From: a virus
IMG/VR virus record: IMGVR_UViG_3300043411_001314
Span: 32,001-96,000 of that record
Reading direction: 5' to 3' (one strand)
Length of the DNA stretch: 64,000 nucleotides
Part shown: positions 21,868 through 47,082 of the stretch, one piece after another
Layout: each line of letters opens with the position of its first letter
Numbering within the stretch: the first letter of the stretch is position 1
The notes under the pieces: generated by a model
The model's input: only the letters and a program-made list of their open reading frames with translations
Told to the model about the DNA's origin: nothing
The model's database searches: none
Translations under genes and position numbers: made by a program

Positions 21868-21890
21868 TCCCTCCCGGTCACGAGTGATGC

Positions 21891-21919: not shown

Positions 21920-21927
21920 TCGCGTTG

Positions 21928-21955
21928 CGAATGACTGGATCGGATGGGCCGATAA
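21928..21955 (+). promoter_or_regulatory. putative late promoter (sigma28/WhiG-like)
   Basis: CGAA-N16-GCCGATAA. Confidence 0.6.
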
Positions 21956-22002
21956 CAGTTCGTAGACGCCGCGCCCCAGCGGCGTGATGGAAGGATGGAA
22001 TC

Positions 22003-22554: not shown

Positions 22555-22587
22555 TGAGTGTCCCAGGGTTTGGAACGGAGATGTCCA

Positions 22588-24055: not shown

Positions 24056-24309
24056 CGGCGTTGGAGGATGTGACCGAGCTGGTTCGCCGACACCAGAAGC
24101 GGTGCGCCCGCACCATCCTGGAGGCCAAGGACGCCGGCGCCACCGACGACGTCCTGCGCAAGGTGGTGCTCGACGCCATCGGCGACTTCGCCGACCTCGT
24201 GGTGTCCGTGTTGCCATCAGTCACCCGCGAGGACATCATGCTGAACGGGTACGCACTGGAACTGCTCGAGCAGATCCACACCTCAGTGGGCGCGGCAGCG
24301 GAGTCCTGA
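24052..24309 (+). CDS. hypothetical protein
   Basis: Coupled ORF with RBS GAGGAG. Confidence 0.6.
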   Translation: MTALEDVTELVRRHQKRCARTILEAKDAGATDDVLRKVVLDAIGDFADLVVSVLPSVTREDIMLNGYALELLEQIHTSVGAAAES

Positions 24310-25250
24310 TGGCGAAGAAGGTGGCCCTCTCCAAGGGTCAGTTTCACGATCTCGTCCCCTTCGCGTCCGCCGCCCTCAACGACATAGCGGTACAGGGGTC
24401 CGGGTTCGCCGGATCACTCATCGCCACAGCGGTAGCGGAGACGGTCGACCAGTCGACCAGGGCGGTGGCCAAGCAGCTGGCCGAGGTGGCTCGCGTCATC
24501 AGTGAGGGCCTGGAGCCGGAGGAGTTCCGTAAGGCCCACCAACGGATCGGCGAGGCCGCCCAGAGGTCCGTGGTCGCCTCCTACAACGCCTCGAGGAACG
24601 GCCAGACGCGAGGCGCTTCCGGCTACCGCTCCGATGAGCGCTACTCCGGTGGCAAGCTGCTCGGCGCCTTGAACAGCCCGGACTTCTTCCGCGCCACAGC
24701 GGCGGGCCTGGAGTTCATCAACGTCGGCATGCTCAACGACCAGGCCGCCCAGTGGGCGCGCCTCAACTTCGGCGCCCAGCCCCGGGGCCGCGGTTCACGA
24801 CGTCAGTTCAGCGTGCAGGTCGGCCAGATGATCCTGGCGACCATCGGGTTCAACGAACCAGCGCGGCCCGGGTTCCTGCTGCCGAAGGGCTACTTCTGGA
24901 AGGACGGTCAGCCCGTCCGCCCAGGCCCCCCCACACCTGGGACGGAGTTCTACCTCGCCGGTACTGGTCCCCGGAAGGGGAAGGACCGGGTTCGGGGTGC
25001 CGCCGACGGCGAACGTGGCAGCTTCAACGCCATGGTCGGCCCGAAGCGTTCCCTCGGCATCGAGGCCCGGAACTTCCTGGATGCCGGCCTCTATACCATC
25101 GCTCATGAGATCGGCCCTGCCTACATCAAGATCGTCAACGACATGTACCGTCGCGGCGAGTCGACTGTTCGTCCGGCGCCCATCACCTTCAAGGTGCACA
25201 CGAATGCGACGTTCCGACGTTCGTCGACTTCAGGCTTGAAGTGGGACTGA
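24309..25250 (+). CDS. neck/tail completion-like protein
   Basis: WARLNFG and C-terminal GIEARNFLDAGL reminiscent of HK97 gp10-like proteins. Confidence 0.5.
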   Translation: MAKKVALSKGQFHDLVPFASAALNDIAVQGSGFAGSLIATAVAETVDQSTRAVAKQLAEVARVISEGLEPEEFRKAHQRIGEAAQRSVVASYNASRNGQTRGASGYRSDERYSGGKLLGALNSPDFFRATAAGLEFINVGMLNDQAAQWARLNFGAQPRGRGSRRQFSVQVGQMILATIGFNEPARPGFLLPKGYFWKDGQPVRPGPPTPGTEFYLAGTGPRKGKDRVRGAADGERGSFNAMVGPKRSLGIEARNFLDAGLYTIAHEIGPAYIKIVNDMYRRGESTVRPAPITFKVHTNATFRRSSTSGLKWD

Positions 25251-25253
25251 TCC

Positions 25254-25282
25254 TTGACTCACCACTGGGTGGTCTGTAGGAT
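25254..25282 (+). promoter_or_regulatory. sigma70-type promoter for leader peptide and tRNA-Pro/Trp
   Basis: TTGACT-N17-TAGGAT; spacer contains ACCAC-TGG-GTGGT palindrome. Confidence 0.75.
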
Positions 25283-25289
25283 TTCAACC

Positions 25290-25334
25290 GTGCGCACCAC
25301 CCTGCTCCCACCCGTCCCGCGATGGCGGGGCTGA
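25290..25334 (+). CDS. putative leader peptide MRTTLLPPVPRWRG (Pro/Trp sensing)
   Basis: GTG CGC ACC ACC CTG CTC CCA CCC GTC CCG CGA TGG CGG GGC TGA, 7 nt after the -10 box; shares 14 nt with the Ser leader. Confidence 0.7.
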   Translation: MRTTLLPPVPRWRG

Positions 25335-25370
25335 CGGCCTGATTGGTCGGTCACACCCCGCGCGAGTCTC

Positions 25371-25444
25371 CGGGGTGTGGTGTAGTGGTAGCACGGGTAG
25401 TTTGGGACTATCTGGTGGGGGTTCGATTCCCTCCACCCCGACCA
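25371..25444 (+). tRNA. tRNA-Pro(UGG)
   Basis: CGGGGTG...CACCCCG-A-CCA acceptor; GGTAG-TTTGGGA-CTATC anticodon arm; GGTTCGATTCC. Confidence 0.92.
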
Positions 25445-25463
25445 GCAGGCTTCATCCATTCCT

Positions 25464-25537
25464 ACGGGTGTAGCTCAGTGGTAGAGCAGCGGCTTCCAAT
25501 CCCGCCGGCGAGGGTTCGACTCCTTCCACCCGTGCCA
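25464..25537 (+). tRNA. tRNA-Trp(CCA)
   Basis: ACGGGTG...CACCCGT-G-CCA (A1-U72, G73); loop TTCCAAT; C31:C39 mismatch. Confidence 0.85.
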
Positions 25538-25546
25538 CGCAGGCGC

Positions 25547-25575
25547 TGAATGAACCCCCCTCCAGGGGCCGATGA
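25547..25575 (+). promoter_or_regulatory. putative late promoter (sigma28/WhiG-like)
   Basis: TGAA-N17-GCCGATGA before the major tail gene. Confidence 0.55.
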
Positions 25576-25616
25576 ACGTTCGTAACCAAGTTCGTTCACC
25601 AACCCTGGAGTGATCT

Positions 25617-27014
25617 GTGAGCGTCAAAGCAGGCAAGGTTCTTACTGTCGGCAACGGCTTCCTCGTGGATCGCCTCCAGTCGACCGGTGGGTCCGGCGTC
25701 AACTTCCCCGAGGAGAGAATCCTCGAAACCGGCAACGAGCTGGCGGTCGACACCGTCTCGGACACCCCGCAGGTGTCGATCGAGCTCGAGTCGCTGGACA
25801 CCACGGTCGAGACCGAGGCGATCCTGATCAACGTCGACGAGACCACGCTGTCCGACGGCGACATCATCGACCTCCGTGACGCCAAGCCGCTGGACATCGT
25901 GTCCCCGGTGAAGGGCGCCGGTACGTCGAAGGACACCGTGGCCGGCGTGATCTGGGGTCAGTGCCAGCTGGAGTCCGCCACCTGGCGGTACGGTGTTCGC
26001 CAGAACGCCACCCAGTCGTTCTCGCTGACCTCCGACTCCCAGTACATCGGCGTCTACACGCCGTACCGTCAGGAGTGGGCTGCGGCCGGCACCGGCCCGT
26101 ACGCCTTCACCAACACCGCCATCAAGACGGTGGAGAAGGGCTCGGACCTGTACGCCCTGGCCGTGTGCATCCATGAGTCGGACGGCACCTACACCCCGCT
26201 GTTCCATGGTGCGGACTACACCAACACCAACGCCGGGTTCACCCTCGTCTCCGCTGCACCCGGTGGCTCGACCGTGACCGCCTGCTACTTCTCGGCGACG
26301 GACACCACGTTCGCTCAGACCGTGCACCCGACCCCGTCGGTGAAGCCGGCGGCTGTGCGCGGCAAGGACATCGAGTTCTACCTCGGCGTTGGCCCGACCC
26401 GCGTCTTCACTGGGTCCACCACGAACGCTGACGCCACGCTGACGGCTGCTGGCGGTGCGTTCACCTCGGCTGACGTCGGGGCTCTCATCGAAGCGACTGG
26501 CGTCACCGCCGGCACCACCATCGCGTCGGTGACCAACTCGACCACCGTGGAGCTCTCAGCCAACGCCACCGCCACCGGCAGCGTCGATGTCACCCTTCGG
26601 CCACCGCTGGTGTGGTGGAGAGGCGTCCAGTCGGTGGACGTCTCCTGGCGTGTCCAGATGGAGCGTGAAGAGGAGCTCGGCAACCCACACAACGTGGCGT
26701 CGGACTACGACGTGCCTGAGGTCGGTGGCTCGATCACCATGCGCCCGTCCACCATCGACTACCTGGTGGAGAAGGCAGCGCAGATCGCCGGCGTGCCCAC
26801 CACGCAGATCTCGAACCTCCTCCAGTCTGCGCTCCTCGAGCTGCAGATCCGGATCAACCACCCGTCGACGGGCTCTCGCCTGAAGACCTTCCGCTGCCGT
26901 GACGCCCGTGTGCGTCCGCCGGCGTTCGGTGCCCGGGTGAACCAGAAGGTGGAGCCGCAGTTCCAGTGGACCTCGGCTTCCGGCGACCTGGAGATCATCA
27001 AGGGCGCCCCGTAA
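25617..27014 (+). CDS. major tail protein
   Basis: Thr-rich 465 aa upstream of chaperones and tape measure; followed by hairpin. Confidence 0.75.
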   Translation: MSVKAGKVLTVGNGFLVDRLQSTGGSGVNFPEERILETGNELAVDTVSDTPQVSIELESLDTTVETEAILINVDETTLSDGDIIDLRDAKPLDIVSPVKGAGTSKDTVAGVIWGQCQLESATWRYGVRQNATQSFSLTSDSQYIGVYTPYRQEWAAAGTGPYAFTNTAIKTVEKGSDLYALAVCIHESDGTYTPLFHGADYTNTNAGFTLVSAAPGGSTVTACYFSATDTTFAQTVHPTPSVKPAAVRGKDIEFYLGVGPTRVFTGSTTNADATLTAAGGAFTSADVGALIEATGVTAGTTIASVTNSTTVELSANATATGSVDVTLRPPLVWWRGVQSVDVSWRVQMEREEELGNPHNVASDYDVPEVGGSITMRPSTIDYLVEKAAQIAGVPTTQISNLLQSALLELQIRINHPSTGSRLKTFRCRDARVRPPAFGARVNQKVEPQFQWTSASGDLEIIKGAP

Positions 27015-27021
27015 TCGAGGC

Positions 27022-27060
27022 GGGGGCGATGCCGTAGGCAGGGGACACGGCATCGCCCCC
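27022..27060 (+). terminator. stem-loop after major tail gene
   Basis: GGGGGCGATGCCGT-N11-ACGGCATCGCCCCC, no U-tract. Confidence 0.6.
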
Positions 27061-27107
27061 GACGGTGGCCAGCATTTCGAAGGAACAACGGAAGGACAAG
27101 GATCAAC

Positions 27108-27971
27108 ATGCGCCTCAGCGACATGTACAAGACCAGTGAGGAAGTCACGTTCATGCAGGGGTCCGACGCCGAAGAGACGGTGGCGGTCGTCAAGCTGAAC
27201 GAGCCGGAGCAGGCCACCTTGGCCCGCAAAGCCGGTGCCGCCCGAGCCCGGGCCATCGCCGAGCTCCGAGACCCGGAGTCGGATCTCTCACTGGAGCTTC
27301 GGATGGTCCTCGTCGGCATGACCGAGGACGAGTTGATCTCCCAGATCATCGACGAGGATCTCGAGCAGAAGCTCCTGTCGGTCCACGAGGAGCTCGCCGC
27401 ATCGGATGAGTGGTCGACTGACGACTACCTCCACGGCCTCGAGGAGGCGTGGAACGGCTCGGCCGACGAGCCTGGCCTCAAGGTCACCGGCGCCGACACC
27501 GAAGAGGGCCAGCGGGTCCTCAACGAGTTGTCCCGCTTCCACACCAAGGTAGGGGAGCTCATCGCTGCTGAGCGGGCGGATCTCCGCGCTGGGTTCGAGG
27601 GGCTCGACATGGAGTTCCTCCTCGACAAGGCGTACGCAGCCTGCGTGAAGCGCAAGGCCGACCAGGTGTTCATGGACGAGTACGTCCGCCGGCGCACCTA
27701 CATGTCGACCCGTGTCGGATCCGCCCCCGAGGATCGCCGCAAGTACTACTTCGACTCGATCGAGGACTACGACGACTGCGATGAGCTGATGATCAAGCAG
27801 CGGTTGATGAAGGCGTACGCCGAGATGGCCGTGGAGGGTGTGGAGGGAAAAGAATCGCCGGGTCACCCCGGTTCCTCGCCCTCGTCCGAAGCTCCCGCCA
27901 CGGAGCCGGTGTCGGCTCGCTCCGCCCGTCCGGCTGCGAAGCGTTCGAAGACGTCCCGAGCGAGTGGGTAA
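27108..27971 (+). CDS. tail assembly chaperone (gpG-like)
   Basis: Between major tail and tape measure; contains G GGA AAA slippery site. Confidence 0.8.
   Translation: MRLSDMYKTSEEVTFMQGSDAEETVAVVKLNEPEQATLARKAGAARARAIAELRDPESDLSLELRMVLVGMTEDELISQIIDEDLEQKLLSVHEELAASDEWSTDDYLHGLEEAWNGSADEPGLKVTGADTEEGQRVLNELSRFHTKVGELIAAERADLRAGFEGLDMEFLLDKAYAACVKRKADQVFMDEYVRRRTYMSTRVGSAPEDRRKYYFDSIEDYDDCDELMIKQRLMKAYAEMAVEGVEGKESPGHPGSSPSSEAPATEPVSARSARPAAKRSKTSRASG
27845..27851 (+). other. programmed -1 frameshift site GGGAAAA
   Basis: -1 frame (GKRIAGSPRF...EWVMAVAH) is open and joins ORF 27971..28195. Confidence 0.85.
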
Positions 27972-28195
27972 TGGCCGTCGCCCACGCTGACCACATCCTG
28001 GAGCTCCAGGCGAACCTCGACGGCAAAGAGATGCCGCCGGAGTGGATGTGGACTCTGCCGTGGGAGATGGAGCGCCACATGAAGAAGGTGGTTGCCGCCC
28101 GCAAGGAGAAGTACGGGAAGGACGACGACGACGAGGACATGGAGGGGGAAGGCTGGACCCGCAATGAGATGATCCCTGACGCGTGGCGCGACTGA
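27971..28195 (+). CDS. C-terminal part of frameshifted chaperone (gpGT)
   Basis: MPPEWMW motif; in frame with the -1 product. Confidence 0.75.
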   Translation: MAVAHADHILELQANLDGKEMPPEWMWTLPWEMERHMKKVVAARKEKYGKDDDDEDMEGEGWTRNEMIPDAWRD

Positions 28196-28207
28196 GAGGT
28201 GTGAGCA

Positions 28208-31200
28208 GTGGAGACTTACAAGCTGAACTTCAAGGTCGGGATCGACAAGACCGACGTCACCGCGTTCATCAGGGACATGAATCGTGCCGCCGCCGAGGCG
28301 TCATCTTCCATCGCCAAGGCTGCTTCCGGCGCCCAGGCGAAGGTGGGCGCCGGAGCTCCTGGCGCTGTAGCCACCCGGGGTATTGCCGACATCGAAGGTC
28401 AGCTGCGCGGCAGGGTTGGCTTGGCCGAGCGGTCCGGCCTGTTCTCCACCGGCCAAATACGGGACCTTCAGGGTGCCGTCAACGAGATCGTCCGACTTGC
28501 CAGGTCGGGGGTCCGCAAGGACGTCACCGCCGCTGGGCGCAACCTCACGTCCGACCTCGGTGCGTCGGGCGGTAAGGCGTACCGGTCGCGTGTCGGCGGC
28601 GTCGAGCAGTCGGTCTACCGTCGCGCCGAGGCCGAGGCCCAGGCCGCCGAGGCCGCCACTCAGGCCGCCGCCGAAGAGGGGCGACTGAACGCTTGGCGTA
28701 AGAACGCCCGGGCCCGCCTTCAGGGGTCCATCTCCACCGAGAACGCCGCCCGCGCCGAGTCGGCCAAGGCCGCCGAGCTCGAGGCCGCTGCCCGACTGAA
28801 GGAGGCCAATGAGGCGGAGAAGCAGGCCGCAGCGGCCAAGGCCAGGGCTGACAAGGCCCGCCCCATCTACGGCCCCCCGAAGCCGCCGAAAAGCGGGGTC
28901 GCCCCAGGTGTCGCCGCGGCCGAACGGCAGGCCAAGGAGCTCGCCGCTGCCCAGGCCAAGCTCGACAGGGAGCAGGCCAGGGCCCAGGCCAAGGCCGCCG
29001 CCGCCGCCTCTGAGCCGGAAGATGCCGTCCTGAAGAGGTTTGGTCTCCTCCCAGAGGGGGGGCTGGACTATTACTCCAAGGTGATGGGTGGCCCTGGCCC
29101 TGGCCTTGGTTGGGCTCGCCTCAACGCCGGACCCACGTCGGCGCTCGATCGCTACCGCGACCTGAACACCGGCATCGGCCGTAACGAGTTCGCGAACAAC
29201 ACCGTCCTCGATGGGGATGACAAGACCCTCGCCGAGATGTCGGCCGAGGCCCGCGCCAACCTGACCTCGCTTGAGCGGATGCGTCAGGCCACCGAGGAGC
29301 TGGCCAAGGCCGAGCAGTACCTGGCAGACCTCATGGGCCTGTCAAGCCGCGACATGTCCGGCAAGCTCCGCGCCGCCGCCGGGCCCGGTCGTCTGGCCGA
29401 ACTCCTGGAGCTCCGTGCGAAAAGGGAGGGGACCGCCGGGCTTCAAGACCTTGAGGGGTTTGAGGCCGCCGCCGACCAACGCCGGGCCAACGAGGTCAAG
29501 GAAGCCAAGAACAGGTACATCACCGACGACGACCTCGACGCCGCCGTCGGCGTGAAGGTGGAATCGGAGAGGCACACCAACGTCATCCGCGGCCGTGCCG
29601 CCGACGAGAAGCGCAGCAACCAGCGGCTGATCGAGGCCGACGCGGAACGAATCGTCGCGACCAACTTGGCATCCTCGGCTTCGAAGCGCATGGCTGCCGA
29701 CATGATGCGTGCGGCGGGGGTGGGACGCGAACGTGAGGCGACGCCGACGCAGCGTTTCCAGGCGTGGATCGCCAACCGCGGGGGCGGCGACAACCTGCCC
29801 CGCCCAGCCACCGACTTCATGCAGGGCAAGCAGCTGGCTGCTTCCCGCATCATGACCACCGCCTCCTTCGCCGCCTCTGGTGGCCTGCTGTACGGCGCCA
29901 TGAGCCTCGGGTCCGACATCATGCGGGAGTCGACCGAGCTCCAGGTCGAGCTCGGGATCATCGAGTCCCAGATCAACTCCCTGGACGCCACCGCCAACAA
30001 GGTGTCGCTCGAGAAGCTCCGCGACGAGCTCCACAAGACGTCCGTGGCGTCGGGTGTGGAGATGAACGAGGTTGCCAACGTCACCCGCCAGCTCGCCGGG
30101 GCATTCGCCGACCCGGAGACCGGGAACGCCAACTTCGCCCTCGCCCAGAAGGAGGCGGACGTCGCCCTGCGGTACTCGAAGATCTCTGGGATCCCCCAGC
30201 AGGAGATCACCGACTCCATGTCGGCCATCTCCCTGGCCTTCCGGGATGTCGACACCGACGTACCGCTTGGGTTCGAGCGGATTCTCGACACGGTCCTGGC
30301 GCTGGAGAACCGCTTCGGCGTTCTCAGCCCGGAGATCGTCAAGTTCACCGCCGATCTTGCCCCCCTCGGCAAGGAGCTCGGCTTCACCCAGGAGCAGCTG
30401 TCCGGCCTCGGCGCCGTCGCCCAGTCGCGGTCCGGGCGCTCCGGCACGGTGCTGTCCGAGCAGCTCGGCCGGATCCTGCCGTCCCTCCAGGACCAACAGA
30501 AGAAGCTGTATGAGCTGTTCAGCTTGAACGCAAACACCGAGGGTGCCGTTGGCGATCTGATGAAGGGGTTCTCGGAGGGTGACACCCCCGAGGTCCTGCG
30601 GACCCTGGTGAAGAACTACGACAAGTTGACGAAGGAGCAGCAGAACGAGATGGCGTCTCTCGTCGGCTCCCGCCGCGAGGCCGCCACCTTCTACGCCCTG
30701 TTGGATTCGCCGAAGCTGACCGAGGATGTCCTCAACGGGGACTTCGTCGCCGGCGGTGAGTTCGAGAATCGCTGGGACAGCTACGAGCAGACCGTCACCC
30801 TGTCAACCCAGCGGATGCGTCGGGCGGTAGAGGAGTTCGGCCAGAAGCTGTTCGACGCTGGCATCGACGACCTGTTGATCAAGGGTGCTCAGTTCGGCAC
30901 CGTCATAGCCGCCGCCCTGTCTGGCGCTGTCAGCTGGATGACCAAGCTGAACGACCTGATGGGTGGTCACCTGACCACGGTACTGCTCGCCGTGGGGGCG
31001 TGGAGAACCTTCGGGCCCTACGTCGCCAAGGCGGTGGCGGCGATGAAGGGATCAGCGGCCTTCGGCGGCCTCATGGGGCGGAGCGGAGCGGTTCCCGGGG
31101 CGGCCGGCCCCATGGTCGGAGCGGGGCCGTTCGGTGGCATGCTGTACGCCGCCCCCCCCGTCCAGGGCCCCCCCGCCCCGGGCACTCCTGGCGCCCCCCG

Positions 31201-33667: not shown

Positions 33668-34038
33668 TGGTTGTCAGGTGGACGTTCAGCGGGTCGTTCG
33701 GATCGGGGCAGTTCCCGATCAACCCCAAGAGGGGCGCCCTCCCGCAGCGGGAGAAGAACGTCAACGTCTCGTCGCAGGCGACGTCGCCCTACGCGAACCC
33801 GATCATCTTCGAGGGTCGTGAGAACCCGTCGATGTTCCCGTTCGAGGGCTCGATCATCAGCGAGTACCACTACAACTTCATGGTGGCCTGGTTCGAGTCC
33901 ACGCAGACCTGCTCGGTCACCGACGACCTCGGCAACTCGTTCGACCTGTACCTGACCAGCTTCAAACCGACGCGCAAGAACAGACACAACCACGACTGGG
34001 CCATGGACTACACCGCCGAGGCGGTGATCGTCGGATGA
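33667..34038 (+). CDS. distal tail-like minor tail protein
   Basis: Directly after tape measure; VTDDLGNSF. Confidence 0.6.
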   Translation: MVVRWTFSGSFGSGQFPINPKRGALPQREKNVNVSSQATSPYANPIIFEGRENPSMFPFEGSIISEYHYNFMVAWFESTQTCSVTDDLGNSFDLYLTSFKPTRKNRHNHDWAMDYTAEAVIVG

Positions 34039-35546
34039 GGCGGTCAGGGGCACTCGAGTCGATCTGGGCGTCCGGTCTCTACCTTGGCGACAACCGGGCC
34101 AACGCCTACGTCACCGTCAACCCGACCTGGCACCTCGAGGAGGACTCGTCGTCGTCCGCCGCCGTCTACGAGCCCGAGCGCATGCCCTTCCGCCGCTGGG
34201 CCGACACGGGGGGGGACATCGAGGTCCCTCGCTCGGTGCTGAAGTCCATCCAGATCAACCGGTCCATCACTGAGGACTGCGCGCAGCTGACCCTCGTCAT
34301 CAAGAACGCTGCCCCCGGCGGCGGGCCCAACATCGACCAGCAGGGCTACTTCGCGCTACGCCAGGTGGTGGCCGACTCCAGCTGGGGAAAGGCGCCCACT
34401 AGCTGGGGCGCGCTCGCCTACCCCGGCACGTCAGCCTCCTACGGCTACCTCGCCCCGGGCAGCCTCATCAAGACCTACGAGGGGTACGGCGGTTACAACC
34501 TGTCGCGCCCGGCGGCTCTCGGTGCCGGCAACGTGGTGCCGACGGGCGTGTGGATCGTCGACGACACCAACCTCACCGCCAACGGCGACATCTCAGTGAT
34601 CGCCCGCGACCTCGCCGCCCTGCTGGTCGATCAGACCCTGTACCCGCCCTTCATGCCCGACGACTGCTACCCGCTGCAGTTCTACAGCGCATCCTGGAAC
34701 GAGGACATCAACGGCGACCCTGACGGGTTCGTGCCGACGGAGACGAACTACGAAGACCTGATCAACATCCCCGAGCTCATTGCCCTTTGGGCGGGGTTCC
34801 ACGCCCCCGATGGCTCGGGCGTTCTCGGGCACGTCGAGCAGACCGGCATCGACATGCCGGCACCCTTCAAGGCCGACTTCTTCGACAAGAAGCAGCCGAT
34901 CGACGTGATCAAGGAGATCCTCAAGATCGTTGGGTACCGCGCCTGGGTCGACCAGGAGGGCGGCCTGCGGATGACGTCGCAGAACATCTGGCAGGCCGGC
35001 AACCGCCTCTACGGCGGTGGCGAGACCGGGGCGTGTTTCACCATCCATGAGCGCCAGATGCTCACCGCGTTCACCTCGTCGTGGACCCGACGGGCCGACC
35101 GGTCGCGGGTGATCGTATCGCAAGGCAACCCGGCCATCGAGGACGGCGTGAAGCACGCCACCTGGGACTCGACGCAGGACGCTCGGAAGAACCAGCTGCG
35201 CGGCGCGAACTACCCGGCGTTCTGGCAGTTGGACAAAGACATCCCCAAGGAGGACATGACGATCCTCGCCGAGCTCACCGCCATGCGCATGTGGTTCGCC
35301 CGGCATGGTGGCCAGATCACGGCATGGGCCAACCCGCTGATCGACCCGGACGACCAGGTGAAGGTGGTCGAGGCCACTACCTGGGACACGTTCCTACACC
35401 GCGTACAGTCGATGTCGACCACCAACGACATCGAGACCGGCAAGTACGAGATGACCCTCACCACGAACTGGATGGGCCCCGACAACTCCGGCTGGTACAT
35501 CGAGATCAACGAGGATGGGCACGTGATCTACAACGGGGGCACGTGA
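34035..35546 (+). CDS. baseplate hub / minor tail protein
   Basis: SIQINRS, GVWIVDD, ANPLIDPDDQVKV hub-like motifs. Confidence 0.7.
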   Translation: MRRSGALESIWASGLYLGDNRANAYVTVNPTWHLEEDSSSSAAVYEPERMPFRRWADTGGDIEVPRSVLKSIQINRSITEDCAQLTLVIKNAAPGGGPNIDQQGYFALRQVVADSSWGKAPTSWGALAYPGTSASYGYLAPGSLIKTYEGYGGYNLSRPAALGAGNVVPTGVWIVDDTNLTANGDISVIARDLAALLVDQTLYPPFMPDDCYPLQFYSASWNEDINGDPDGFVPTETNYEDLINIPELIALWAGFHAPDGSGVLGHVEQTGIDMPAPFKADFFDKKQPIDVIKEILKIVGYRAWVDQEGGLRMTSQNIWQAGNRLYGGGETGACFTIHERQMLTAFTSSWTRRADRSRVIVSQGNPAIEDGVKHATWDSTQDARKNQLRGANYPAFWQLDKDIPKEDMTILAELTAMRMWFARHGGQITAWANPLIDPDDQVKVVEATTWDTFLHRVQSMSTTNDIETGKYEMTLTTNWMGPDNSGWYIEINEDGHVIYNGGT

Positions 35547-36055
35547 TGGGCGTAACCCAAGGTGACCTCGCCGCCGTCCAAGGCCGGGTGCTGTCCTACC
35601 AAGGGCAGCGTGAGTTCAGGTCGTCCCAGCAGGGGGCGATGCGCTGGGCCCAGTTCCGACTCCACGCCGTTGGGTACAGCGACGCCGAGTACGGGCCGTG
35701 GGATGTCGTGGCTCCCGCCGAGGCCGTTCGGGAGTGCAGGTTCCCGATTGCGTTCGCCGAGGAGCCAATGATGGACGTGATGATCGCACTCGCCGATGGC
35801 GAGACGTGGTCCGGCTCCTATCCAGCCATCACCGCATGCGCTGTCGCCTGGCGACGAGTGAAGGAGAAGCAGATCTTCATCGGGGCGAACGTCGCCCTCT
35901 CGGCGAAGGGCATCGACACCGGGCAGAAGACCGTGGTCACGATCTCGTTCTACGGGCCGGCCTTCACCACGCCCATGAACACCACCCCGGAGATCGAGTT
36001 CTCGACGTCTGGACCGACGTGGGACATGGCCGAGTGGCTGGTGCCGCCGCCATGA
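35546..36055 (+). CDS. minor tail protein
   Basis: Coupled; paralogue of next gene. Confidence 0.65.
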   Translation: MGVTQGDLAAVQGRVLSYQGQREFRSSQQGAMRWAQFRLHAVGYSDAEYGPWDVVAPAEAVRECRFPIAFAEEPMMDVMIALADGETWSGSYPAITACAVAWRRVKEKQIFIGANVALSAKGIDTGQKTVVTISFYGPAFTTPMNTTPEIEFSTSGPTWDMAEWLVPPP

Positions 36056-36591
36056 CGGTGATGGCATCTGACGATCTGTCTGCGGTCCAGGGGCGGCTCC
36101 TCGGCTGGCAGGGCGCGCGTGAAACTCGGACCGCCTCTCAAGGTGGTGAACGGTGGGAGGTGTTCTCGGTTCCCCTCACCGGCGCCTCCCTTCCCGGCGG
36201 ACCCACTCCAGTTCTGGCGGCAGTCCTGCGAGCCGAGGTCGACTGTTCGTTCGCCTATGCGTTCCACGATGAGCCCTTCCTGAAGACCAGCCTCTCCCTC
36301 ATGGATGCTGAAGAGTGGGGGATCATCGAAGCACCCACATGCATGTACGCGACGGCCTGCGTGATCAACTGGCGCCGGGTGAAGGAGCAGCAGTTGATCA
36401 TCGGGGCGAAGGTCGCTCTCGGCGTCTACGATTACCCCATTCGCGACACCGATATGGGTATGGAGATGATGGTCAGGTTCGCCTTCCATGGCCCTGCCAT
36501 CGCTACCCCACTGACGTCTGAAGCTCAGTACGAGAACTCAACAAGTGGTCCCACCTGGGACATGGCCGACTGGCTCGTGGTCGAGCCGTAG
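36052..36591 (+). CDS. minor tail protein (paralogue of 35546..36055)
   Basis: Shared DL.AVQGR.L..QG.RE, WRRVKE.Q..IGA.VAL, STSGPTWDMA.WLV. Confidence 0.65.
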   Translation: MTVMASDDLSAVQGRLLGWQGARETRTASQGGERWEVFSVPLTGASLPGGPTPVLAAVLRAEVDCSFAYAFHDEPFLKTSLSLMDAEEWGIIEAPTCMYATACVINWRRVKEQQLIIGAKVALGVYDYPIRDTDMGMEMMVRFAFHGPAIATPLTSEAQYENSTSGPTWDMADWLVVEP

Positions 36592-36608
36592 AAGGAAGAC
36601 GAAGGAAC

Positions 36609-37898
36609 ATGGCATCCACCACCCCGCTCGGGTTGACCGTCCTCGCCCATGGCGAGAACACCTCAGCCAACGGCCACGCGTTCACATCGAAGGATCCGCT
36701 CCTGGTTGACCGCCTCCTCCGCCAGCTGATGGATCACCGCCACACTGGCGGGACCCCGGCGGCTGAGGTCGCCCCGGACCCGCCGGACCTACTCGAGCTC
36801 GCCACCGAGGGATCCCTCCTACCCGGAACGACCTACTACTACCGGATCGCTGAGATGCGGGGTGGCCTCATCCCCTTCGAGTCGCCGGCTTCAGCCAGTG
36901 TGTGGGTCACCACCTCAGCCGGGTTGACTGCCCCCGAGATCACTACCGCCGACCTCACCGTGGTCACCACGGGGGGCGCCCTCGCTCCCGGGTTCTACCA
37001 GTACGCCGCGACGGTGTACGACACCTTCTACACCTACGACACGAACTGCCCTTCTCCGGTGAGCGTGATGCTCAGCCCCGGCGATGGCGACGCCCAGCAG
37101 GTGGAGATCGACCTCCCCCTCCTCCCGTCCGGCGCCGACGGTTGGAACATCTACCGTCGCGCTCCGAATGGCCTGAACTTCCACTTGATCGACACGCTGG
37201 TTGGTGATCCTGTCGGCCCGTTCGTCGATGACGGGTCCCTGGTGGAGGGCTCGAGGACCCTTCCCACGCGGAACCTCTCGGCGTGGAAGCGCACGGTTTC
37301 CGTCACCCGCCCCGTCGCCGTCACCGGGGACTGGGTCGTGTACCGCTCGAGGGATGACGCAGACTGGAACGGGACGCTCATCGCCACAGTCGACTCCGCC
37401 ACCGACTCGATCGACGACACGGGCCTGCCTGCCGACTTCCTGGCTCCACATGAGTCGTTCTCGCCCTACTGGCAACCGCAGCGCGTGCGCGGTGATGAGG
37501 TCGTGGAGACGGCGCAGGTCGTCCAGTTCTCCGATCCCGGCACGGCGGCCACGGGCCCCATGACCGGCGAGTGGGTGTGCCCGTACACCGAAGCCCGGAT
37601 GGTCAGCCTGACCGCCTCGCTGGCCGCCGGCACCTCCCCGGTAACCCAGGATCTGATCTTCGACGTGGAGAAGTGGGACGGGGTCTCCGCATGGGACGTC
37701 CTGTTCGCCGCCTCCATCGACGCTGCCGTCGACACCGAGACATCCGTGGTCTCCCCCGTCGAGGCCCTGGTGGCCGGCGACCGGCTGCGCGTCAACGTCA
37801 CCCAGGTCGGCGACGGTACCGATCAGGACCTGACCGTGCAGTTCCACCTGTGGGCCCACCCGGGGTGGACGGCTGTGACCTGGGACGAGCCTGCCTGA
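36609..37898 (+). CDS. minor tail protein (FnIII-like repeats)
   Basis: GSLLPGTTYYYRI, GGALAPGFYQY, GADGWNIYR, GDRLRVNVTQVG. Confidence 0.7.
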   Translation: MASTTPLGLTVLAHGENTSANGHAFTSKDPLLVDRLLRQLMDHRHTGGTPAAEVAPDPPDLLELATEGSLLPGTTYYYRIAEMRGGLIPFESPASASVWVTTSAGLTAPEITTADLTVVTTGGALAPGFYQYAATVYDTFYTYDTNCPSPVSVMLSPGDGDAQQVEIDLPLLPSGADGWNIYRRAPNGLNFHLIDTLVGDPVGPFVDDGSLVEGSRTLPTRNLSAWKRTVSVTRPVAVTGDWVVYRSRDDADWNGTLIATVDSATDSIDDTGLPADFLAPHESFSPYWQPQRVRGDEVVETAQVVQFSDPGTAATGPMTGEWVCPYTEARMVSLTASLAAGTSPVTQDLIFDVEKWDGVSAWDVLFAASIDAAVDTETSVVSPVEALVAGDRLRVNVTQVGDGTDQDLTVQFHLWAHPGWTAVTWDEPA

Positions 37899-38830
37899 TG
37901 AAGGTCCCAGAGAAGGACTGGGGATACTCCTTCAACCACCCCAAGCTCGTCCACCGCCACACCAACAAGTTCAGGGCGACCCCCCTCCCCGGGCAGCTTG
38001 ACTCGATTCCCACAGAGGGCGGCTGGCATGAGGAGTGGTTCTGGACGAACCCGGGTGAAGCGTTCGAGTATGAGTGGGTGGTCCCGGCCACCGTGGAATG
38101 GGTCTATGTGTTCGGCGCTGGCGGCGGATCCAACGACACACAATCGGTGGCCGGTGCAACGTTCGGGATGTTTGTGAAGCCTGTTACCCCCGGGTCGACT
38201 ATATCTGTCGTCGTCGGATGCTCTGGCAACCTCGACGATGCCGGTCTACCCGACGGCGGCCCCCCTGGTTTCGGTGGGGATGCGCTCGCCTACGGGGGAG
38301 GGGGTTCGACGACTATGTCGGATGGTGGTGGAATCCTCTATGTGGCGCCTGGCGCTGGAGGTAACACCATCATCCCTGGTGGTGGCGGCTCCGTCAACTT
38401 GTCTTGGACCTGGTGGGATCCATCGCCTTTGTCATGGATTGGGTCCTCAATGGTGAACCCGAACCCGATAACCCCTTCCGTCCCGATCGAACAAACTTTG
38501 GATTCCTACTCGAACGGTGCCCCCGGTTCGGGGGCGGTCGGCGGTGCCGGCGCCGACTGGGTTCTCAGCGGGGACGGCAACCACCTCGCCGGCGGCGGCG
38601 GAGGGGGAGGGTACGGCGGCGGCCCTGGCGGCCCAGTCTACAAGGGCCGACAGGGAGGCTTGTACTGGCATTATGCCAACGGCGGTCGGGCCGGCCGCCC
38701 CCACGTGGGTGGCGACGCCACATATGCGGGCGCCCCATTCACTGAACTGGTCAACGGGACCCCCCTATACTTGCCGTACACGTCCTACAACGCTGGGTGC
38801 GGGTACCTTTACCTTCGATGGCTTGAGTGA
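37898..38830 (+). CDS. glycine-rich tail/receptor-binding protein
   Basis: WVVPATVEWVYV.GAGGG, GGGGGGYGGG. Confidence 0.65.
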   Translation: MKVPEKDWGYSFNHPKLVHRHTNKFRATPLPGQLDSIPTEGGWHEEWFWTNPGEAFEYEWVVPATVEWVYVFGAGGGSNDTQSVAGATFGMFVKPVTPGSTISVVVGCSGNLDDAGLPDGGPPGFGGDALAYGGGGSTTMSDGGGILYVAPGAGGNTIIPGGGGSVNLSWTWWDPSPLSWIGSSMVNPNPITPSVPIEQTLDSYSNGAPGSGAVGGAGADWVLSGDGNHLAGGGGGGGYGGGPGGPVYKGRQGGLYWHYANGGRAGRPHVGGDATYAGAPFTELVNGTPLYLPYTSYNAGCGYLYLRWLE

Positions 38831-38840
38831 GGAACGTCTG

Positions 38841-39338
38841 ATGGCCAATGATCCCGAAGCCGAGTTCCGCGAGTCCATGTACGGCCACGCCACGAACACG
38901 CCGACAGCAATCCACGAGTCCACCACCAAGTGGCTGGACACCGTGCACGCAGGTGGCATCGGCTTTCAGGCCCGGCCCCAGCAGCCCGTCGGCGTGGTGG
39001 ACCTGGAGCATCGAGCCAAGGATCTGGCCGCCGAGTTTGGCATCCCCACCCCGGGCCTCTCCGGCGTCCGGTGGGCGCGCCTACCGCGATCCTGGGGCCG
39101 GTGCGAAGAGGACAACACCATCCTGATCGCCGACCACGCCGCCAAGGTCCCGGCATGGGTGCTCGACTCGGTCATCATCCACGAGCTCGCCCACCTGTCC
39201 CACCGCGACCACGGCCCCGAGTTCGAGGCCATCACCGCCCTGTACCCCTACACCGATCAAGCCCATGGCTACATCCTCTCCGTCCAGGACAGGGAGTGGT
39301 CGATCAAGCGCCCGCCCAAAGGACCCCGCCATGTATGA
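38841..39338 (+). CDS. YgjP/M48-like zinc metallopeptidase
   Basis: WGRC...VP.WVLDSVIIHELAHL.H.DHGPEF. Confidence 0.85.
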   Translation: MANDPEAEFRESMYGHATNTPTAIHESTTKWLDTVHAGGIGFQARPQQPVGVVDLEHRAKDLAAEFGIPTPGLSGVRWARLPRSWGRCEEDNTILIADHAAKVPAWVLDSVIIHELAHLSHRDHGPEFEAITALYPYTDQAHGYILSVQDREWSIKRPPKGPRHV

Positions 39339-39603
39339 CCCCATGATCAGCCTCCCCTACCACGTCGACGGCGTGCAGTTCGACGCGAACATGACCGGCA
39401 TCACCGTCCAGTACTCCATCCCCGAGGAGGTGTCGTCGAAGGGGTCCGAGTACCGCCAACGCAGCATCCCCCTGGGCGTGTCCGAGGAGATCGACCAGAT
39501 CGTGGCCGACATGATGGACTCGCTCTGCCAGGTGCTCGACCTCCACACCGTCGTGCTCCGTGCGCCGGCGGACCGGGTGGCGTCTCGGCCGTTCACCAAG
39601 TGA
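39331..39603 (+). CDS. hypothetical protein
   Basis: RBS AAAGGA; coupled ORF. Confidence 0.55.
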   Translation: MYDPMISLPYHVDGVQFDANMTGITVQYSIPEEVSSKGSEYRQRSIPLGVSEEIDQIVADMMDSLCQVLDLHTVVLRAPADRVASRPFTK

Positions 39604-39619
39604 GGTGTCCGCGGTCTGG

Positions 39620-40087
39620 GTGATACTGCTCAGCTTGTGGATCCTGGTGGCCCTGGCCGCCGCCGCCTTCGTCCTCGCCAGACGAGCTCGAGTGTTCAGC
39701 TCTATGCCGCGGACCGGGGACGTCACCTCAGACCGAGACCCCTTCACCCAGGGCCCCTGGGCCGGGACTGAGGGGGCCGTGCTGGTGGACCGGCGCATCC
39801 TTGTCGCCGTGGCCGAGCCCGAGGAGCTCCGCCTGGCCACCTCACACCGGGACCGGGTCAGACTGCTCGAGCGGCAGATCAAGGCCGAGGGCCTCCGGGT
39901 CCCGGTGCGCATCAACCTCGACCAGCGCGGCCAGCTGTGCGTAGCTGATGGGCACCACCGGCTGGCCGTGGCCACCCGCATGGGGGCCGAGCGGGTCCCG
40001 GTGGTTCTCGTTGGCGTGGAGCAGATCCGGGGGTGGTCCAGGCCCGCCGCCTCCTTCTTCATCAGCGCCCTTGTCACCTGTTCGTAA
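39620..40087 (+). CDS. ParB/sulfiredoxin-like domain protein, possible N-terminal TM
   Basis: I.AEGL.VPV...VADGHHRLAVA..MG.ERVPV. Confidence 0.7.
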   Translation: MILLSLWILVALAAAAFVLARRARVFSSMPRTGDVTSDRDPFTQGPWAGTEGAVLVDRRILVAVAEPEELRLATSHRDRVRLLERQIKAEGLRVPVRINLDQRGQLCVADGHHRLAVATRMGAERVPVVLVGVEQIRGWSRPAASFFISALVTCS

Positions 40088-40100
40088 TCTTTGATACGAT
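40071..40100 (+). promoter_or_regulatory. sigma70-type promoter, leaderless
   Basis: TTGTCA-N18-TACGAT-N6-ATG(40107). Confidence 0.6.
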
Positions 40101-40106
40101 GTTCCG

Positions 40107-40637
40107 ATGAGAAAACTCATCATTGCATCCATCCTTCTACTCTCCGTCGTGGCCTGTCAGCCGGCGCCGGCGCTAGGAGCGCAGTACCACCACTGGTCTG
40201 AGACACCAGCGGAAGTCAGGGCCGAACACGAGCCCGAAGTGATCCAAGCCTGGATCGACACCTACTGGGCCAACGAGTGGGTGCGTATCTACTGGGAGCG
40301 CATCGCCGCCTTCGCCGCCGCCTACGAGCACGCCCAGCGGGTGGCTGCCGAACAGGCCGCCTACCCGTCCGGCCAGTGTGGTGGCGACCTGCCCCCGTGC
40401 TGGGTGATGCGCAAGGAGTCCAAGGGGGACATCCGGATCTGGAACGGTGGCTGTTACAACGGTCCGTGTGGTGGGCGCTCCTCGACTGCGTCCGGTAAGT
40501 GGCAGTTCATCCGGCGCACCTGGGCCGGCTTCGGCGGGTACGCCAATGCGGCCGACGCCCCCGAGCGCGTGCAGGACGACAAGGCTCGTCAGGTCTGGGC
40601 CGGCGGCGGTGGCTGTTCCCACTGGAGCGCCTGCTGA
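40107..40637 (+). CDS. lipoprotein with Rpf-like transglycosylase domain
   Basis: Lipobox VVAC; ES.G...ASGKWQFI..TW..FGG...AADAP..VQD..A..VW...G.SHW.C. Confidence 0.85.
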   Translation: MRKLIIASILLLSVVACQPAPALGAQYHHWSETPAEVRAEHEPEVIQAWIDTYWANEWVRIYWERIAAFAAAYEHAQRVAAEQAAYPSGQCGGDLPPCWVMRKESKGDIRIWNGGCYNGPCGGRSSTASGKWQFIRRTWAGFGGYANAADAPERVQDDKARQVWAGGGGCSHWSAC

Positions 40638-40873
40638 TGCCGACTATCGACGACGTCTTCCCGCCCGAGCAGTGCTCGCCAGAGCCCGAACGGGCAGCCG
40701 ACCCTGAGGTCCTCGGCACCCGCCTGGCGATGGAGCGGGCAATCCACCTCTGCCCCCTCGGGGACGACTCGAAGACCCGCTGCTGCGGCGTCCTGATGTT
40801 CGAGCTGCCGCTCGACGACCGCATCACCATGGACCCCCACCGGGTCCGGTGCATGGTAAGGTCGTTCCCGTGA
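40637..40873 (+). CDS. hypothetical protein
   Basis: HLCP....T.CCG...ELP..DRIT.DP..V.C. Confidence 0.6.
   Translation: MPTIDDVFPPEQCSPEPERAADPEVLGTRLAMERAIHLCPLGDDSKTRCCGVLMFELPLDDRITMDPHRVRCMVRSFP
40854..40862 (+). promoter_or_regulatory. extended -10 promoter candidate for Ser leader
   Basis: TG-G-TAAGGT, 7 nt before GTG 40870 (same spacing as the Pro/Trp leader). Confidence 0.45.
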
Positions 40874-40911
40874 CCACCACCCTGCTCCGATCTTCATCGA
40901 GTAGCAGCTAG
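40870..40911 (+). CDS. putative leader peptide MTTTLLRSSSSSS (Ser sensing)
   Basis: GTG ACC ACC ACC CTG CTC CGA TCT TCA TCG AGT AGC AGC TAG. Confidence 0.75.
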   Translation: MTTTLLRSSSSSS

Positions 40912-40937
40912 CACCGCGGACCATTCCGCGGTGCCTT

Positions 40938-41020
40938 GGAGGGTGCCGCGGAATGGTCCGCAACCGGTCTCGAAAACCGGGGTGGTCGAAAGGCCAGGGG
41001 TTCGATCCCTCCACCTTCCG
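40938..41020 (+). tRNA. tRNA-Ser(CGA)
   Basis: GGAGGGT...ACCTTCC-G; CCGGT-CTCGAAA-ACCGG; long variable arm. Confidence 0.9.
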
Positions 41021-41024
41021 CCCT

Positions 41025-41113
41025 GGAGCGTTGACCGAGTAGGTAAGGTGCCGGGTTGCTAACCCGAGGTCAGCCGTCAGGCTGGGCAGGTTCGAACCCT
41101 GCACGCTCCGCCA
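41025..41113 (+). tRNA. tRNA-Ser(GCU)
   Basis: GGAGCGT...ACGCTCC-G-CCA; anticodon loop TTGCTAA; long variable arm. Confidence 0.9.
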
Positions 41114-41267
41114 TACAGAACGAGCAGTTCCCGGCGAAGATGTCGTTGCTTCCCACGTACTGGCCGTGGACGCAGTAGTTCCTGGAGTGCAGCGGATCCC
41201 GCTCGTCCATGAGCTTCTTCCACTGCCGGCCGACGGTCTCGCTCGGGCCTCGGGCGGGCCCTGTCAT
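41070..41267 (-). CDS. small Cys-containing protein; stop lies antisense inside tRNA-Ser
   Basis: YCVHGQYVG......NCSFC; RBS GAGAGG. Confidence 0.5.
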   Translation of the reverse strand: MTGPARGPSETVGRQWKKLMDERDPLHSRNYCVHGQYVGSNDIFAGNCSFCMAERAGFEPAQPDG

Positions 41268-41298
41268 GACCCTGCCTCTCGCCGCCATTCGCGCCAGC

Positions 41299-47077: not shown

Positions 47078-47082
47078 TGAGG

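Follow-up and report, generated by a model that had tools for sequence, protein, structure and literature searches.

The stretch of DNA analysed here, the window, comprises 64,000 nucleotides (bases 32001-96000) of the 117,502-b IMG/VR virus record IMGVR_UViG_3300043411_001314, which has a G+C content of 66% and an estimated completeness of ~80% (CheckV). ARAGORN predicted eight tRNAs in the whole record, namely the pairs Pro/Trp, Ser/Ser and Gln/Arg (the last on the minus strand) and two tRNA-Thr. The Pro/Trp pair (locus 1) and the Ser/Ser pair (locus 2) are each preceded by a short open reading frame (sORF), which starts with GTG 7 nt after a -10-like box and has codons specifying the amino acids that the tRNAs behind it carry. 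Both sORFs had been pointed out in an earlier note on this DNA, and all of its coordinates and sequences for them were verified. The elements of the two cassettes are as follows (MFE, minimum free energy).

25254-25282, plus strand: predicted sigma-A-type promoter of the Pro/Trp cassette, with TTGACT at 25254-25259, a 17-nt spacer and TAGGAT at 25277-25282
25290-25334, plus strand: putatively leaderless sORF 1, peptide MRTTLLPPVPRWRG and stop, GTG 7 nt after the -10 box
25295-25308, plus strand: 14-mer CACCACCCTGCTCC common to both leaders (second copy at 40875-40888)
25308, 25311, 25317 and 25320-25325, plus strand: candidate sensor codons of sORF 1, CCA, CCC, CCG and the pair CGA-TGG, respectively
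25332-25353, plus strand: stop hairpin TGACGGCC / GGTCGGTCA, predicted in MFE folds, the 5' arm of which opens with TGA
25352-25360, plus strand: anti-acceptor segment CACACCCCG, complementary to nt 1-9 of tRNA-Pro (25371-25379)
25371-25444, plus strand: tRNA-Pro(UGG), 62.3 bits (Rfam), starting 36 nt past the stop of sORF 1
25464-25537, plus strand: tRNA-Trp(CCA), 61.3 bits (Rfam)
40637-40873, plus strand: upstream protein gene of 78 amino acids, third-position G+C (GC3) 0.90, the TGA of which overlaps the GTG of sORF 2 (GTGA)
40854-40862, plus strand: extended -10-like box TGG-TAAGGT, within the 3' end of the upstream gene
40870-40911, plus strand: sORF 2, peptide MTTTLLRSSSSSS and stop, GTG 7 nt after the -10 box
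40911-40934, plus strand: 10-bp 'protector' hairpin, predicted in the MFE fold of the leader alone and opening with the G of TAG
40916-40931, plus strand: anti-D-arm 16-mer GCGGACCATTCCGCGG, the perfect complement of 40946-40961 in tRNA-Ser(CGA)
about 40938-41023, plus strand: tRNA-Ser(CGA), atypical (40937-41023 in ARAGORN)
41025-41113, plus strand: tRNA-Ser(GCU), 51.4 bits (Rfam)

The predicted promoter of locus 1 is intergenic, lying past a gene that ends at 25250, and is the sole sigma-70-like site in 25100-25700, where 0.1 are expected. The codons of sORF 1 are GTG CGC ACC ACC CTG CTC CCA CCC GTC CCG CGA TGG CGG GGC TGA. At locus 2, no -35 element was found. The codons of sORF 2 are GTG ACC ACC ACC CTG CTC CGA TCT TCA TCG AGT AGC AGC TAG, with CGA at 40888 and the Ser run at 40891-40908. 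Ser accounts for 6 of 12 codons (P = 5.7e-4, binomial, at the amino-acid level); as TCT, TCA and AGT each make up 0.25-0.40% of codons in 66 confident ORFs of the phage, such a run is not expected from composition. The GTG of sORF 2 shares bases with the TGA of a real upstream gene, so that its translation could also come about by coupling. The 14-mer CACCACCCTGCTCC occurs in exactly two exact copies in the whole record, one per leader. A third copy with one mismatch (11678-11691, minus strand) was dropped, as it lies in coding-looking sequence without a tRNA. The tRNA genes at both loci begin 25-36 nt past the sORF stop without an intervening ORF or Shine-Dalgarno sequence (SD). The tRNA-Ser(CGA) scored under the Rfam tRNA gathering score and matched the tRNA-Sec model best (39.9 bits, cut-off 47); the homologue in Mycobacterium phage Sparky shares 82.5% identity with it, and homologues are conserved in other phages. 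The flanking proteins gave no Pfam or PHROG family match.

BLAST of the window's tRNAs led to Sparky. Every fetched locus was passed through the same filter: a TANNNT box, a distance of 5-8 nt, an ATG, GTG or TTG start, an ORF of 5-45 codons and a start no more than 250 nt upstream of a block's first tRNA, a block being tRNAs at most 40 nt apart. The design was found in the cultured mycobacteriophages Sparky, StAugustine and Bxz1-like phages (Rizal, I3, Tonenili, Specks, Burrough and Phabba), plus one IMG/VR contig (L119). The leader ORFs comprise 13-23 codons and are unannotated in every fetched record; each peptide below is followed by a stop, except that of StAugustine, for which the beginning is given.

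Sparky: TACTCT, 7 nt, GTG, peptide MLIPGRRSSSTSR, before tRNA-Ser(GCU) and an unannotated tRNA-Ser(CGA)
Sparky: TATCTT, 6 nt, ATG, peptide MTSARRRPWPWRYTAEG, before tRNA-Pro, -Trp and -Tyr
Rizal: -10 box at 7 nt, peptide MFEIRPPEPRWRYQPSLGR, before tRNA-Pro, -Trp and -Tyr
Tonenili, Burrough and Specks: -10 box at 7 nt, peptide MFKSSGIGRPESPRWRYQPSLGR, before tRNA-Pro, -Trp and -Tyr
I3: -10 box at 7 nt, peptide MFARLSLSSSLRLS (Phabba: MFALLSLSSSLRLS), before tRNA-Ser(GCU), -Ser(CGA), -Leu(CAG), -Leu(GAG) and -Leu(CAA)
StAugustine: -10 box at 7 nt, peptide beginning MSGRRWQLPQQRNYRSP, extending into tRNA-Trp, before tRNA-Trp, -Asn, -Gln(CUG), -Lys and -Lys
IMG/VR contig L119: TATCGT, 6 nt, ATG, peptide MRFGRRSSSTSR, before a Sparky-type Ser cassette in a different context

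In these lineages the leader tracks the tRNA content. The Pro/Trp leader of the window contains PPVPRW, and the leaders before Pro/Trp/Tyr contain PWPWRY in Sparky and PPEPRWRY in Rizal; the core PxPRWR(Y) of sORF 1 is common to the Rizal and Tonenili leaders. At the nucleotide level, CCG CGA TGG CG is common to PPVPRWRG of the window and PPEPRWRY of the Bxz1-type phages, and the next codon is TAT only where a tRNA-Tyr is present. Before Ser/Ser, the window has SSSSSS and Sparky SSSTS. The I3 leader (LSLSSSLRLS) provides each of its five tRNAs with at least one codon that it reads (AGT, TCG, CTG, CTT, TTG), and StAugustine has RWQLPQQRN before Trp/Asn/Gln/Lys/Lys. The Trp and Tyr codons in the leader of Specks, seemingly without the corresponding tRNAs, were dismissed as a counterexample, for both tRNAs are still present downstream, behind an HNH insertion. 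The match between leader codons and anticodons, for which the earlier note had proposed a test in other phages, co-varies with tRNA content across lineages. The MxTTLL start of the two window peptides, the conservation of which the note had likewise proposed to test, is not conserved outside this genome: three matches were obtained in IMG/VR, none of them beside a tRNA, and the N-termini of the other leaders are unrelated.

For 20 of the 22 tRNAs behind seven leaders, at least one readable codon is present in a leader of 12-18 codons (6.6 expected, P = 7e-10). When one leader per sequence family was counted, 12 of 14 tRNAs were matched (3.8 expected, P = 4e-6). Because some leaders share sequence and the positives were picked out with the data already in view, the P values describe the pattern and do not constitute proof.

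Several signatures of conserved ORFs accompany the codon match. In 10 of 10 leaders, the -10 box (TANNNT) ends 6-7 nt before ATG or GTG, and in 7 of 10 it is an extended -10 box with TGn (1/16 expected for each); others have TTGnnn at -35 distance. In mycobacteria, a 5' AUG or GUG is regarded as sufficient for leaderless initiation. Two independent stop-to-stop substitutions were detected, TAG to TAA between Specks and Burrough and TGA to TAA between L119 and Sparky, and an in-frame start is kept despite unrelated promoters and first codons in L119 compared with Sparky and in Rizal compared with Tonenili. These stop-to-stop changes and frame-keeping 5' replacements argue for translation of the ORFs. 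Among the C1-cluster (Bxz1-type) phages, identity of the leaders reaches at least 99% in 187 of 202 records and in 193 of 197.

The choice of codons is also regular. CGA makes up 14 of 122 leader codons, compared with ~3% in the six-frame background and 1.0% in the genes of the window phage, and each of these 14 CGA codons, which come from eight leaders, has as its immediate 3' neighbour a codon for an amino acid carried by a downstream tRNA (CGA-TGG, CGA-TCT, CGA-TCA, CGA-CCG, CGA-CCC, CGA-TAT, CGA-CTT and CGA-AAT). For tRNAs with G34, the leaders favour the U-ending wobble codon (TAT, AAT, CTT, AGT), with 8 U-ending versus 2 C-ending codons in a count by eye; in the genes of the window phage, TAT amounts to 0.8 and TAC to 19.7 per 1000 codons.

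On balance, we consider it probable that a leaderless sensor ORF gates the output of the phage tRNAs via the position of the ribosome. Each cassette would be a self-contained, promoter-driven tRNA mini-operon, the transcript of which starts at the start codon of an ORF of 13-14 codons. This ORF would act as a sensor of decoding speed with codons for the amino acids of the tRNAs just downstream. The sensor codons would mostly stand right after CGA, a codon that bacteria also read with an inosine tRNA and the I:A wobble pair of which may disturb decoding of the next codon in the A site; often they would be a rare, wobble-read synonym (TAT, AGT, AAT, CTT; TCT, TCA). When charged cognate tRNAs are plentiful, the ribosome would reach the stop and depart, and the freed RNA at the end of the ORF or in the 3' leader would pair with the 5' acceptor strand or the D-arm of the first tRNA, so that the precursor misfolds and less mature tRNA is made. 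When the cognate tRNAs are scarce, be it through rarity in the host, lack of charging or destruction, the ribosome would dwell on the sensor codons and keep the competing leader segments covered or self-paired, and the tRNA could fold and be processed. The net outcome would be negative feedback on the phage tRNA supply. We infer the transcription start, the translation of the ORF, the stalling, the polarity of the switch and misfolding (not Rho or RNase) as its output. A sharper version is more tentative and rather less likely than not: in some actinophages, the ORF would be a 'test' ORF built of CGA-X pairs, X being a codon, often a wobble-read one, for each of the downstream tRNAs. With the I:A pair in the P site, decoding in the A site would become rate-limiting, so that the dwell time measures the concentration of each tRNA species, and the ribosome position would decide between folding and trapping of the pre-tRNA, possibly as an answer to host nucleases that destroy tRNAs.

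The predicted pairing between leader and tRNA is most distinct at the Ser locus, where in the MFE fold of leader plus tRNA the 16-mer GCGGACCATTCCGCGG grows to a 21-pair helix (G-U pairs included) that replaces the cloverleaf (z = -3.5; 1 of 100 shuffles). For Rizal, Tonenili and StAugustine, z was ~ -2.4. Sparky has an analogous anti-acceptor segment 5' of its tRNA-Pro, and in the Rizal fold the pairing involves the 5' end and the D-arm of tRNA-Pro. Locus 1 can be laid out as 1:2 / 2:3 / 3:4 pairings in which segment 4 is the 5' strand of the tRNA. The earlier note had proposed that a hairpin overlapping the leader stop hides an anti-tRNA segment at both loci. The overlap exists at both (25332-25353 and 40911-40934); the hidden segment was recovered at the Ser locus (40916-40931 within 40911-40934), and at the Pro locus CACACCCCG adjoins the stop hairpin and does not lie within it. 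The 5' portion that both leaders have in common is predicted to pair with a different region of each first tRNA, ACCAC (25296-25301) with the D-arm of tRNA-Pro (25383-25388) and GACCACC (40871-40878) with the variable arm of tRNA-Ser (about 40982-40989). A leader x tRNA matrix tried as a covariation test was discarded as undiagnostic, because the tRNA-Pro of the window pairs with almost any leader; given this lack of specificity, the pairing part of the mechanism is something that we infer.

In an equilibrium footprint model, a 28-nt ribosome footprint was forced to be unpaired at each A-site position and the probability of the native tRNA fold was read out.

Sparky, Ser leader: no ribosome 0.37, inside the sORF 0.92, at the stop 0.36
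Sparky, Pro/Trp/Tyr leader: no ribosome 0.23, inside the sORF 0.79, at the stop 0.21
I3: no ribosome 0.38, inside the sORF 0.73, at the stop 0.44
Rizal: no ribosome 0.11, inside the sORF 0.85, at the stop 0.12
StAugustine: no ribosome 0.11, inside the sORF about 0.6, at the stop 0.09
Window, Pro/Trp leader: no ribosome 0.22, inside the sORF 0.44, at the stop 0.42
Window, Ser leader: no ribosome 0.23, inside the sORF 0.23, at the stop 0.14

Five of the seven modelled leaders fit the pattern that a stalled ribosome lets the tRNA fold and a vacated leader traps it. Since the anti-D-arm lies beyond the footprint at the Ser locus of the window, any switch there must be kinetic; in such a version, which is the model of the earlier note, the protector hairpin 40911-40934 would be the first to form, except when its 5' arm is covered by a terminating ribosome. 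The protector/anti-tRNA switch is statistically clear at the Ser locus alone, and the model gives no ON/OFF difference at either locus of the window.

A number of observations weigh against gating of tRNA output by such a sensor ORF. Regarding structure, the two loci of the window are those without a useful ON/OFF contrast in the footprint model, the Ser tRNA being predicted to be misfolded throughout; the leader:tRNA interaction at locus 1 is not above shuffles (z = -1.2; 11 of 100), four leaders give no interaction above shuffles, and a leader's own pair is the strongest in its row of the matrix for 3 of 10 leaders. It is also not obvious how a misfolded first tRNA could exert control over the second. 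No terminator-like sites were found in 25100-25700 or in 40700-41300; neither locus has a hairpin and U-tract terminator, so that the cassettes are not classical attenuators and their output step can only be guessed. Regarding codons, the two tRNA-Lys of StAugustine are the two misses, having no codon in the leader, and the binomial P values of individual leaders at the amino-acid level are modest, ranging from 0.15 to 5e-5 (0.077 for Pro/Trp of the window). TCT, TCA, TCC, CTA and CCC are not decoded by the encoded tRNAs under standard wobble, so that the match is partly one at the amino-acid level; at locus 2, only four of the six Ser codons (TCG, AGT, AGC, AGC) are decoded by them. The Pro codons could stem from complementarity to the G-rich acceptor of tRNA-Pro. 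The CGA and wobble-codon rules are post hoc finds, and in L119 one of two CGA codons precedes a cognate codon, the other preceding the non-cognate TTC. The RNA contigs X15 and X16 are displayed over the neighbouring tail gene (25597-26130) and carry no evidence on leader expression.

The distribution of the design is narrow as well. It is absent in 10 other actinophage records; no such leader was found in the actinophages Kahlid, Bricole, Racecar, NootNoot, Dorothea, Phillis, Jace, OneUp and JSwag, and most internal tRNA blocks of Bxz1-type arrays have no leader. Small annotated coding sequences before the tRNAs of Kahlid and Bricole were rejected as ordinary small proteins without a codon match. 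A survey of 457 tRNA blocks from 119 IMG/VR loci that share a 22-nt tRNA 5' half, mostly of moderate-GC phages, yielded a best-sORF cognate score of at least 3 in 2 real blocks, compared with a mean of 2.0 for permuted tRNA sets, and the strict leaderless filter gave no convincing leader on the seven high-GC loci of this survey. From these null surveys and absences it follows that the design is limited to related cassettes in four actinophage lineages and does not extend to phages in general. The scope 'in phages' given in the earlier note is thereby narrowed: several actinophage lineages carry the design, and the 10 other actinophages and the 119-locus sample were negative.

Among the alternatives, the one that fares best, while still unlikely, keeps the same sensor ORF and gives it another output (Rho termination, RNase access or transcription-translation coupling) or the opposite polarity, with leader translation unwinding the leader:tRNA duplex as feed-forward licensing. 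The lack of terminators at both loci would suit it, as would the C-rich, G-poor 5' halves of the window leaders. The sORF of StAugustine enters tRNA-Trp by 21 nt and the Ser sORF of Sparky ends 6 nt before the tRNA, so that a terminating ribosome must sit on the 5' strand of the tRNA; for the loci of the window, the equilibrium model leaves the polarity unfixed. However, leaders of 45-120 nt are short for the loading of Rho, the mycobacterial precedent studied so far is one of occupancy blocking a duplex, and occupancy inside the ORF favours the native tRNA in five of the seven modelled leaders.

It is quite improbable that the cassettes have plain strong promoters and a structured 5' leader trimmed by RNase P, with the ORF and its codon content being incidental or resulting from antisense similarity to the tRNA (e.g., CCC/CCG and the G-rich acceptor of tRNA-Pro). 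The Pro/Trp leader of the window taken alone (P = 0.077) would be compatible with this, much of sORF 1 pairs with the 5' half of tRNA-Pro in the MFE fold, many short ORFs arise in GC-rich DNA, and the generic survey showed no enrichment. Complementarity does not, however, explain the matching of 20 of 22 tRNAs, which includes the rare TGG, TAT, AAT and TTG codons. The Ser run uses five different synonyms, RTG stands at the predicted start in 10 of 10 leaders, two stops were exchanged for other stops and the frame is kept behind unrelated 5' ends, and 14 of 14 CGA codons precede a codon for a cognate amino acid. Equally doubtful is that the ORFs sense amino-acid charging (e.g., serine starvation) or general translation stress instead of the quantity of a specific tRNA, so that tRNA expression would be timed to host physiology and would not respond to tRNA destruction. 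Of the six Ser codons, two are read by host and not by phage tRNAs, as are CCC, TCC and CTA elsewhere, so that the sensor would sample whole amino-acid families, and classical attenuators sense charging, but exact cognate codons are present for 20 of 22 tRNAs, including each of the five in I3, and extra tRNA gives no relief from a lack of amino acid.

The closest known system is the mycobacterial leaderless polycysteine sORF (Ms5788A, 'Cys ribulon'; Canestrari et al., 10.1101/834739). In that experimentally demonstrated mechanism, a ribosome stalled on the Cys tract blocks pairing with a downstream site, fast transit allows the duplex, and no terminator is involved; the sensing logic proposed in the earlier note agrees with it. 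The common points are the actinobacterial setting, a transcript starting at AUG or GUG (here predicted from the -10 spacing), a very short ORF with a tract of codons for the sensed amino acid near its 3' end and the lack of a terminator. The target of the Cys sORF is the SD of a protein gene and its output is translation, whereas the phage leaders have neither an ORF nor an SD behind them, but the tRNAs that decode the sensor codons, are multivalent (up to five tRNA species) and are borne by phages. Classical attenuators (trpL, hisL, thrL, ilvL, pheL) likewise have a short upstream ORF rich in the relevant codons, with multivalent versions, and alternative pairings can be drawn in both cases. 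In contrast to them, the phage cassettes have no terminator, are predicted to be leaderless and not SD-led, and would control tRNAs and not biosynthetic enzymes, with the product RNA itself as the possible last segment. T-box riboswitches are similar in being cis leaders that read the status of a specific tRNA through its codon; unlike the phage leaders, they bind uncharged tRNA without a ribosome and control aminoacyl-tRNA synthetase and amino-acid genes. Rfam at the gathering score gave only tRNAs in the window, and a permissive search of 40800-41200 revealed no T-box.

For the CGA pairs, a parallel exists in yeast (Tesina et al., 10.1101/755652), where a P-site CGA, read by an I:A wobble pair, shifts the following codon into a position incompatible with decoding, and the slow step is partly rescued by more tRNA. 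A slow step that depends on tRNA concentration, as described there, is the property needed by a concentration sensor. CGA-CCG, one of the pairs studied in yeast, occurs in a Sparky leader; the yeast case was shown as a defect of eukaryotic translation and not as a regulatory device.

Full-text literature searches returned no description of leader peptides before tRNA genes. In having a ribosome read a short ORF rich in diagnostic codons, the proposed design follows the principle of leader-peptide attenuation, in the leaderless version known from mycobacteria. It differs in having tRNAs as the putative regulated genes, in the absence of a terminator or SD target and in a sensor built on CGA-X pairs and wobble codons; the product RNA may moreover be the last element of the switch. 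Mycobacterial toxins cleave tRNA-Trp, -Ser, -Leu, -Gln, -Lys and -Pro, and a link between the leaders and tRNA-cleaving toxins is speculation. Cleavage of tRNA-Cys by VapC4 is reported to stall ribosomes at Cys codons (PMC13096801). An mBio paper on tRNA-dependent lysogeny (PMC10865867) reports a promoter before a phage tRNA, and a term search of its text gave neither 'leader' nor 'leaderless'.

The cassette of locus 1 behaves as one unit. The metagenome contig L031, the downstream protein of which is 84% identical, is colinear with 21244-25125 and 25568-28195 of the window and has ~120 nt where the window has 443 nt. The whole promoter-leader-tRNA block is missing from it and it has no tRNA, so that the promoter, the leader and the two tRNAs were gained or lost together. 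Two strain variants have four differences in 25217-25236 versus one (25365) in the cassette 25254-25547, among the 40 best-supported rows. Single-protein IMG/VR scans with two flanking proteins gave no relatives. The tail-region protein has 135 homologues, and alignment-based scans (24 viral and 69 metagenome loci) detected no homologue with an adjacent tRNA; L037 alone has any tRNA. The sequence GCCGATGA at 25568-25575 precedes the tail-region gene (25617) by ~40 nt; L031 has retained it, just 3' of the insertion point of the cassette. It may belong to a sigma-28-type late promoter with a GCCGATAA-like -10 box; if so, the tRNA cassette with its sigma-A-type promoter would split a late gene from its own late promoter.

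Further observations concern the leaders and tRNAs of the related phages. The Pro leaders hold Pro-Pro-X-Pro, as PPVP in the window (25308-25319) and as PPEP in L102 (5729-5740). Diprolyl motifs are intrinsically slow and EF-P-dependent, and Pro-Pro-X-Pro could add to stalling. In Sparky, the unannotated tRNA-Ser(CGA)-like gene (L100 1501-1585; about 28342-28426 of KM083128) lies 3 nt past tRNA-Ser(GCU) and is missed by ARAGORN, apparently owing to a C-C mismatch closing the anticodon stem; in the Sparky array, tRNA-like fragments and a gene for a Ro-like protein follow the tRNAs. In Bxz1-like and Myrna-like phages, a tRNA block with a leader is closely followed by a peptidyl-tRNA hydrolase gene (L105 4917-5291; L118 1631-2005; L117 from 1262), which comes after Pro/Trp/Tyr in Tonenili and Specks and after Ser/Leu in Phabba. 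This placement fits a phage that expects stalled ribosomes. The Streptomyces phage Stella (L101 1013-1048) has TAACCT, 7 nt and an sORF starting GTG ACC ACC (MTTRTLVRVTR and stop), which ends exactly at tRNA-Pro. Its start resembles that of the Ser leader of the window. It lacks Pro codons, and it carries CTA and GTA, which match tRNA-Leu(UAG) and tRNA-Val(UAC) of a 19-tRNA and a single-tRNA block farther downstream.

Elsewhere in the record, no codon-matched leader ORF was found in front of the Gln/Arg pair (47004-47155, minus strand), the doubtful tRNA-Thr(agt) or tRNA-Thr(tgt). On the minus strand, 47160-47226 before tRNA-Gln(UUG)/Arg(UCU) forms a long imperfect hairpin (GGGGGTGGGCG...CGCCCACCCCC) around a second stem, straight after the stop of a 191-codon ORF; the Gln/Arg pairing of tRNAs also occurs in Bxz1-like phages. 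The 96-nt tRNA-Thr(AGT) called by ARAGORN at 60325-60420 was not reported by Rfam at the gathering score and is probably not a standard tRNA. Near-identical DNA to 24800-26200 of the window was present in wastewater, activated-sludge and freshwater metagenomes (12 studies) and partly in six metatranscriptome runs; engineered and fresh waters thus harbour this phage widely.

The tRNA genes of phages are commonly seen as constitutive helpers for codon usage or as spares against tRNA-targeting defences. The same elements are present in M. smegmatis phages that are in culture, comprising some 200 genomes of the Bxz1-like type as well as Sparky and StAugustine, which makes the proposal testable by standard genetics; the CGA-X and wobble-codon rules supply precise synonymous mutations for this, and annotators would gain a reason to call ORFs of 13-23 codons. 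If the sharper version is true, it would be the first case in which the production of tRNAs is controlled through translation, and inhibitory codon pairs would have found a natural role as analogue sensors. With a ribosome-read sensor in front of tRNA genes, leader-peptide attenuation would extend from amino-acid metabolism to the translation apparatus. The phage would measure the decoding of particular codons and top up exactly those tRNAs.

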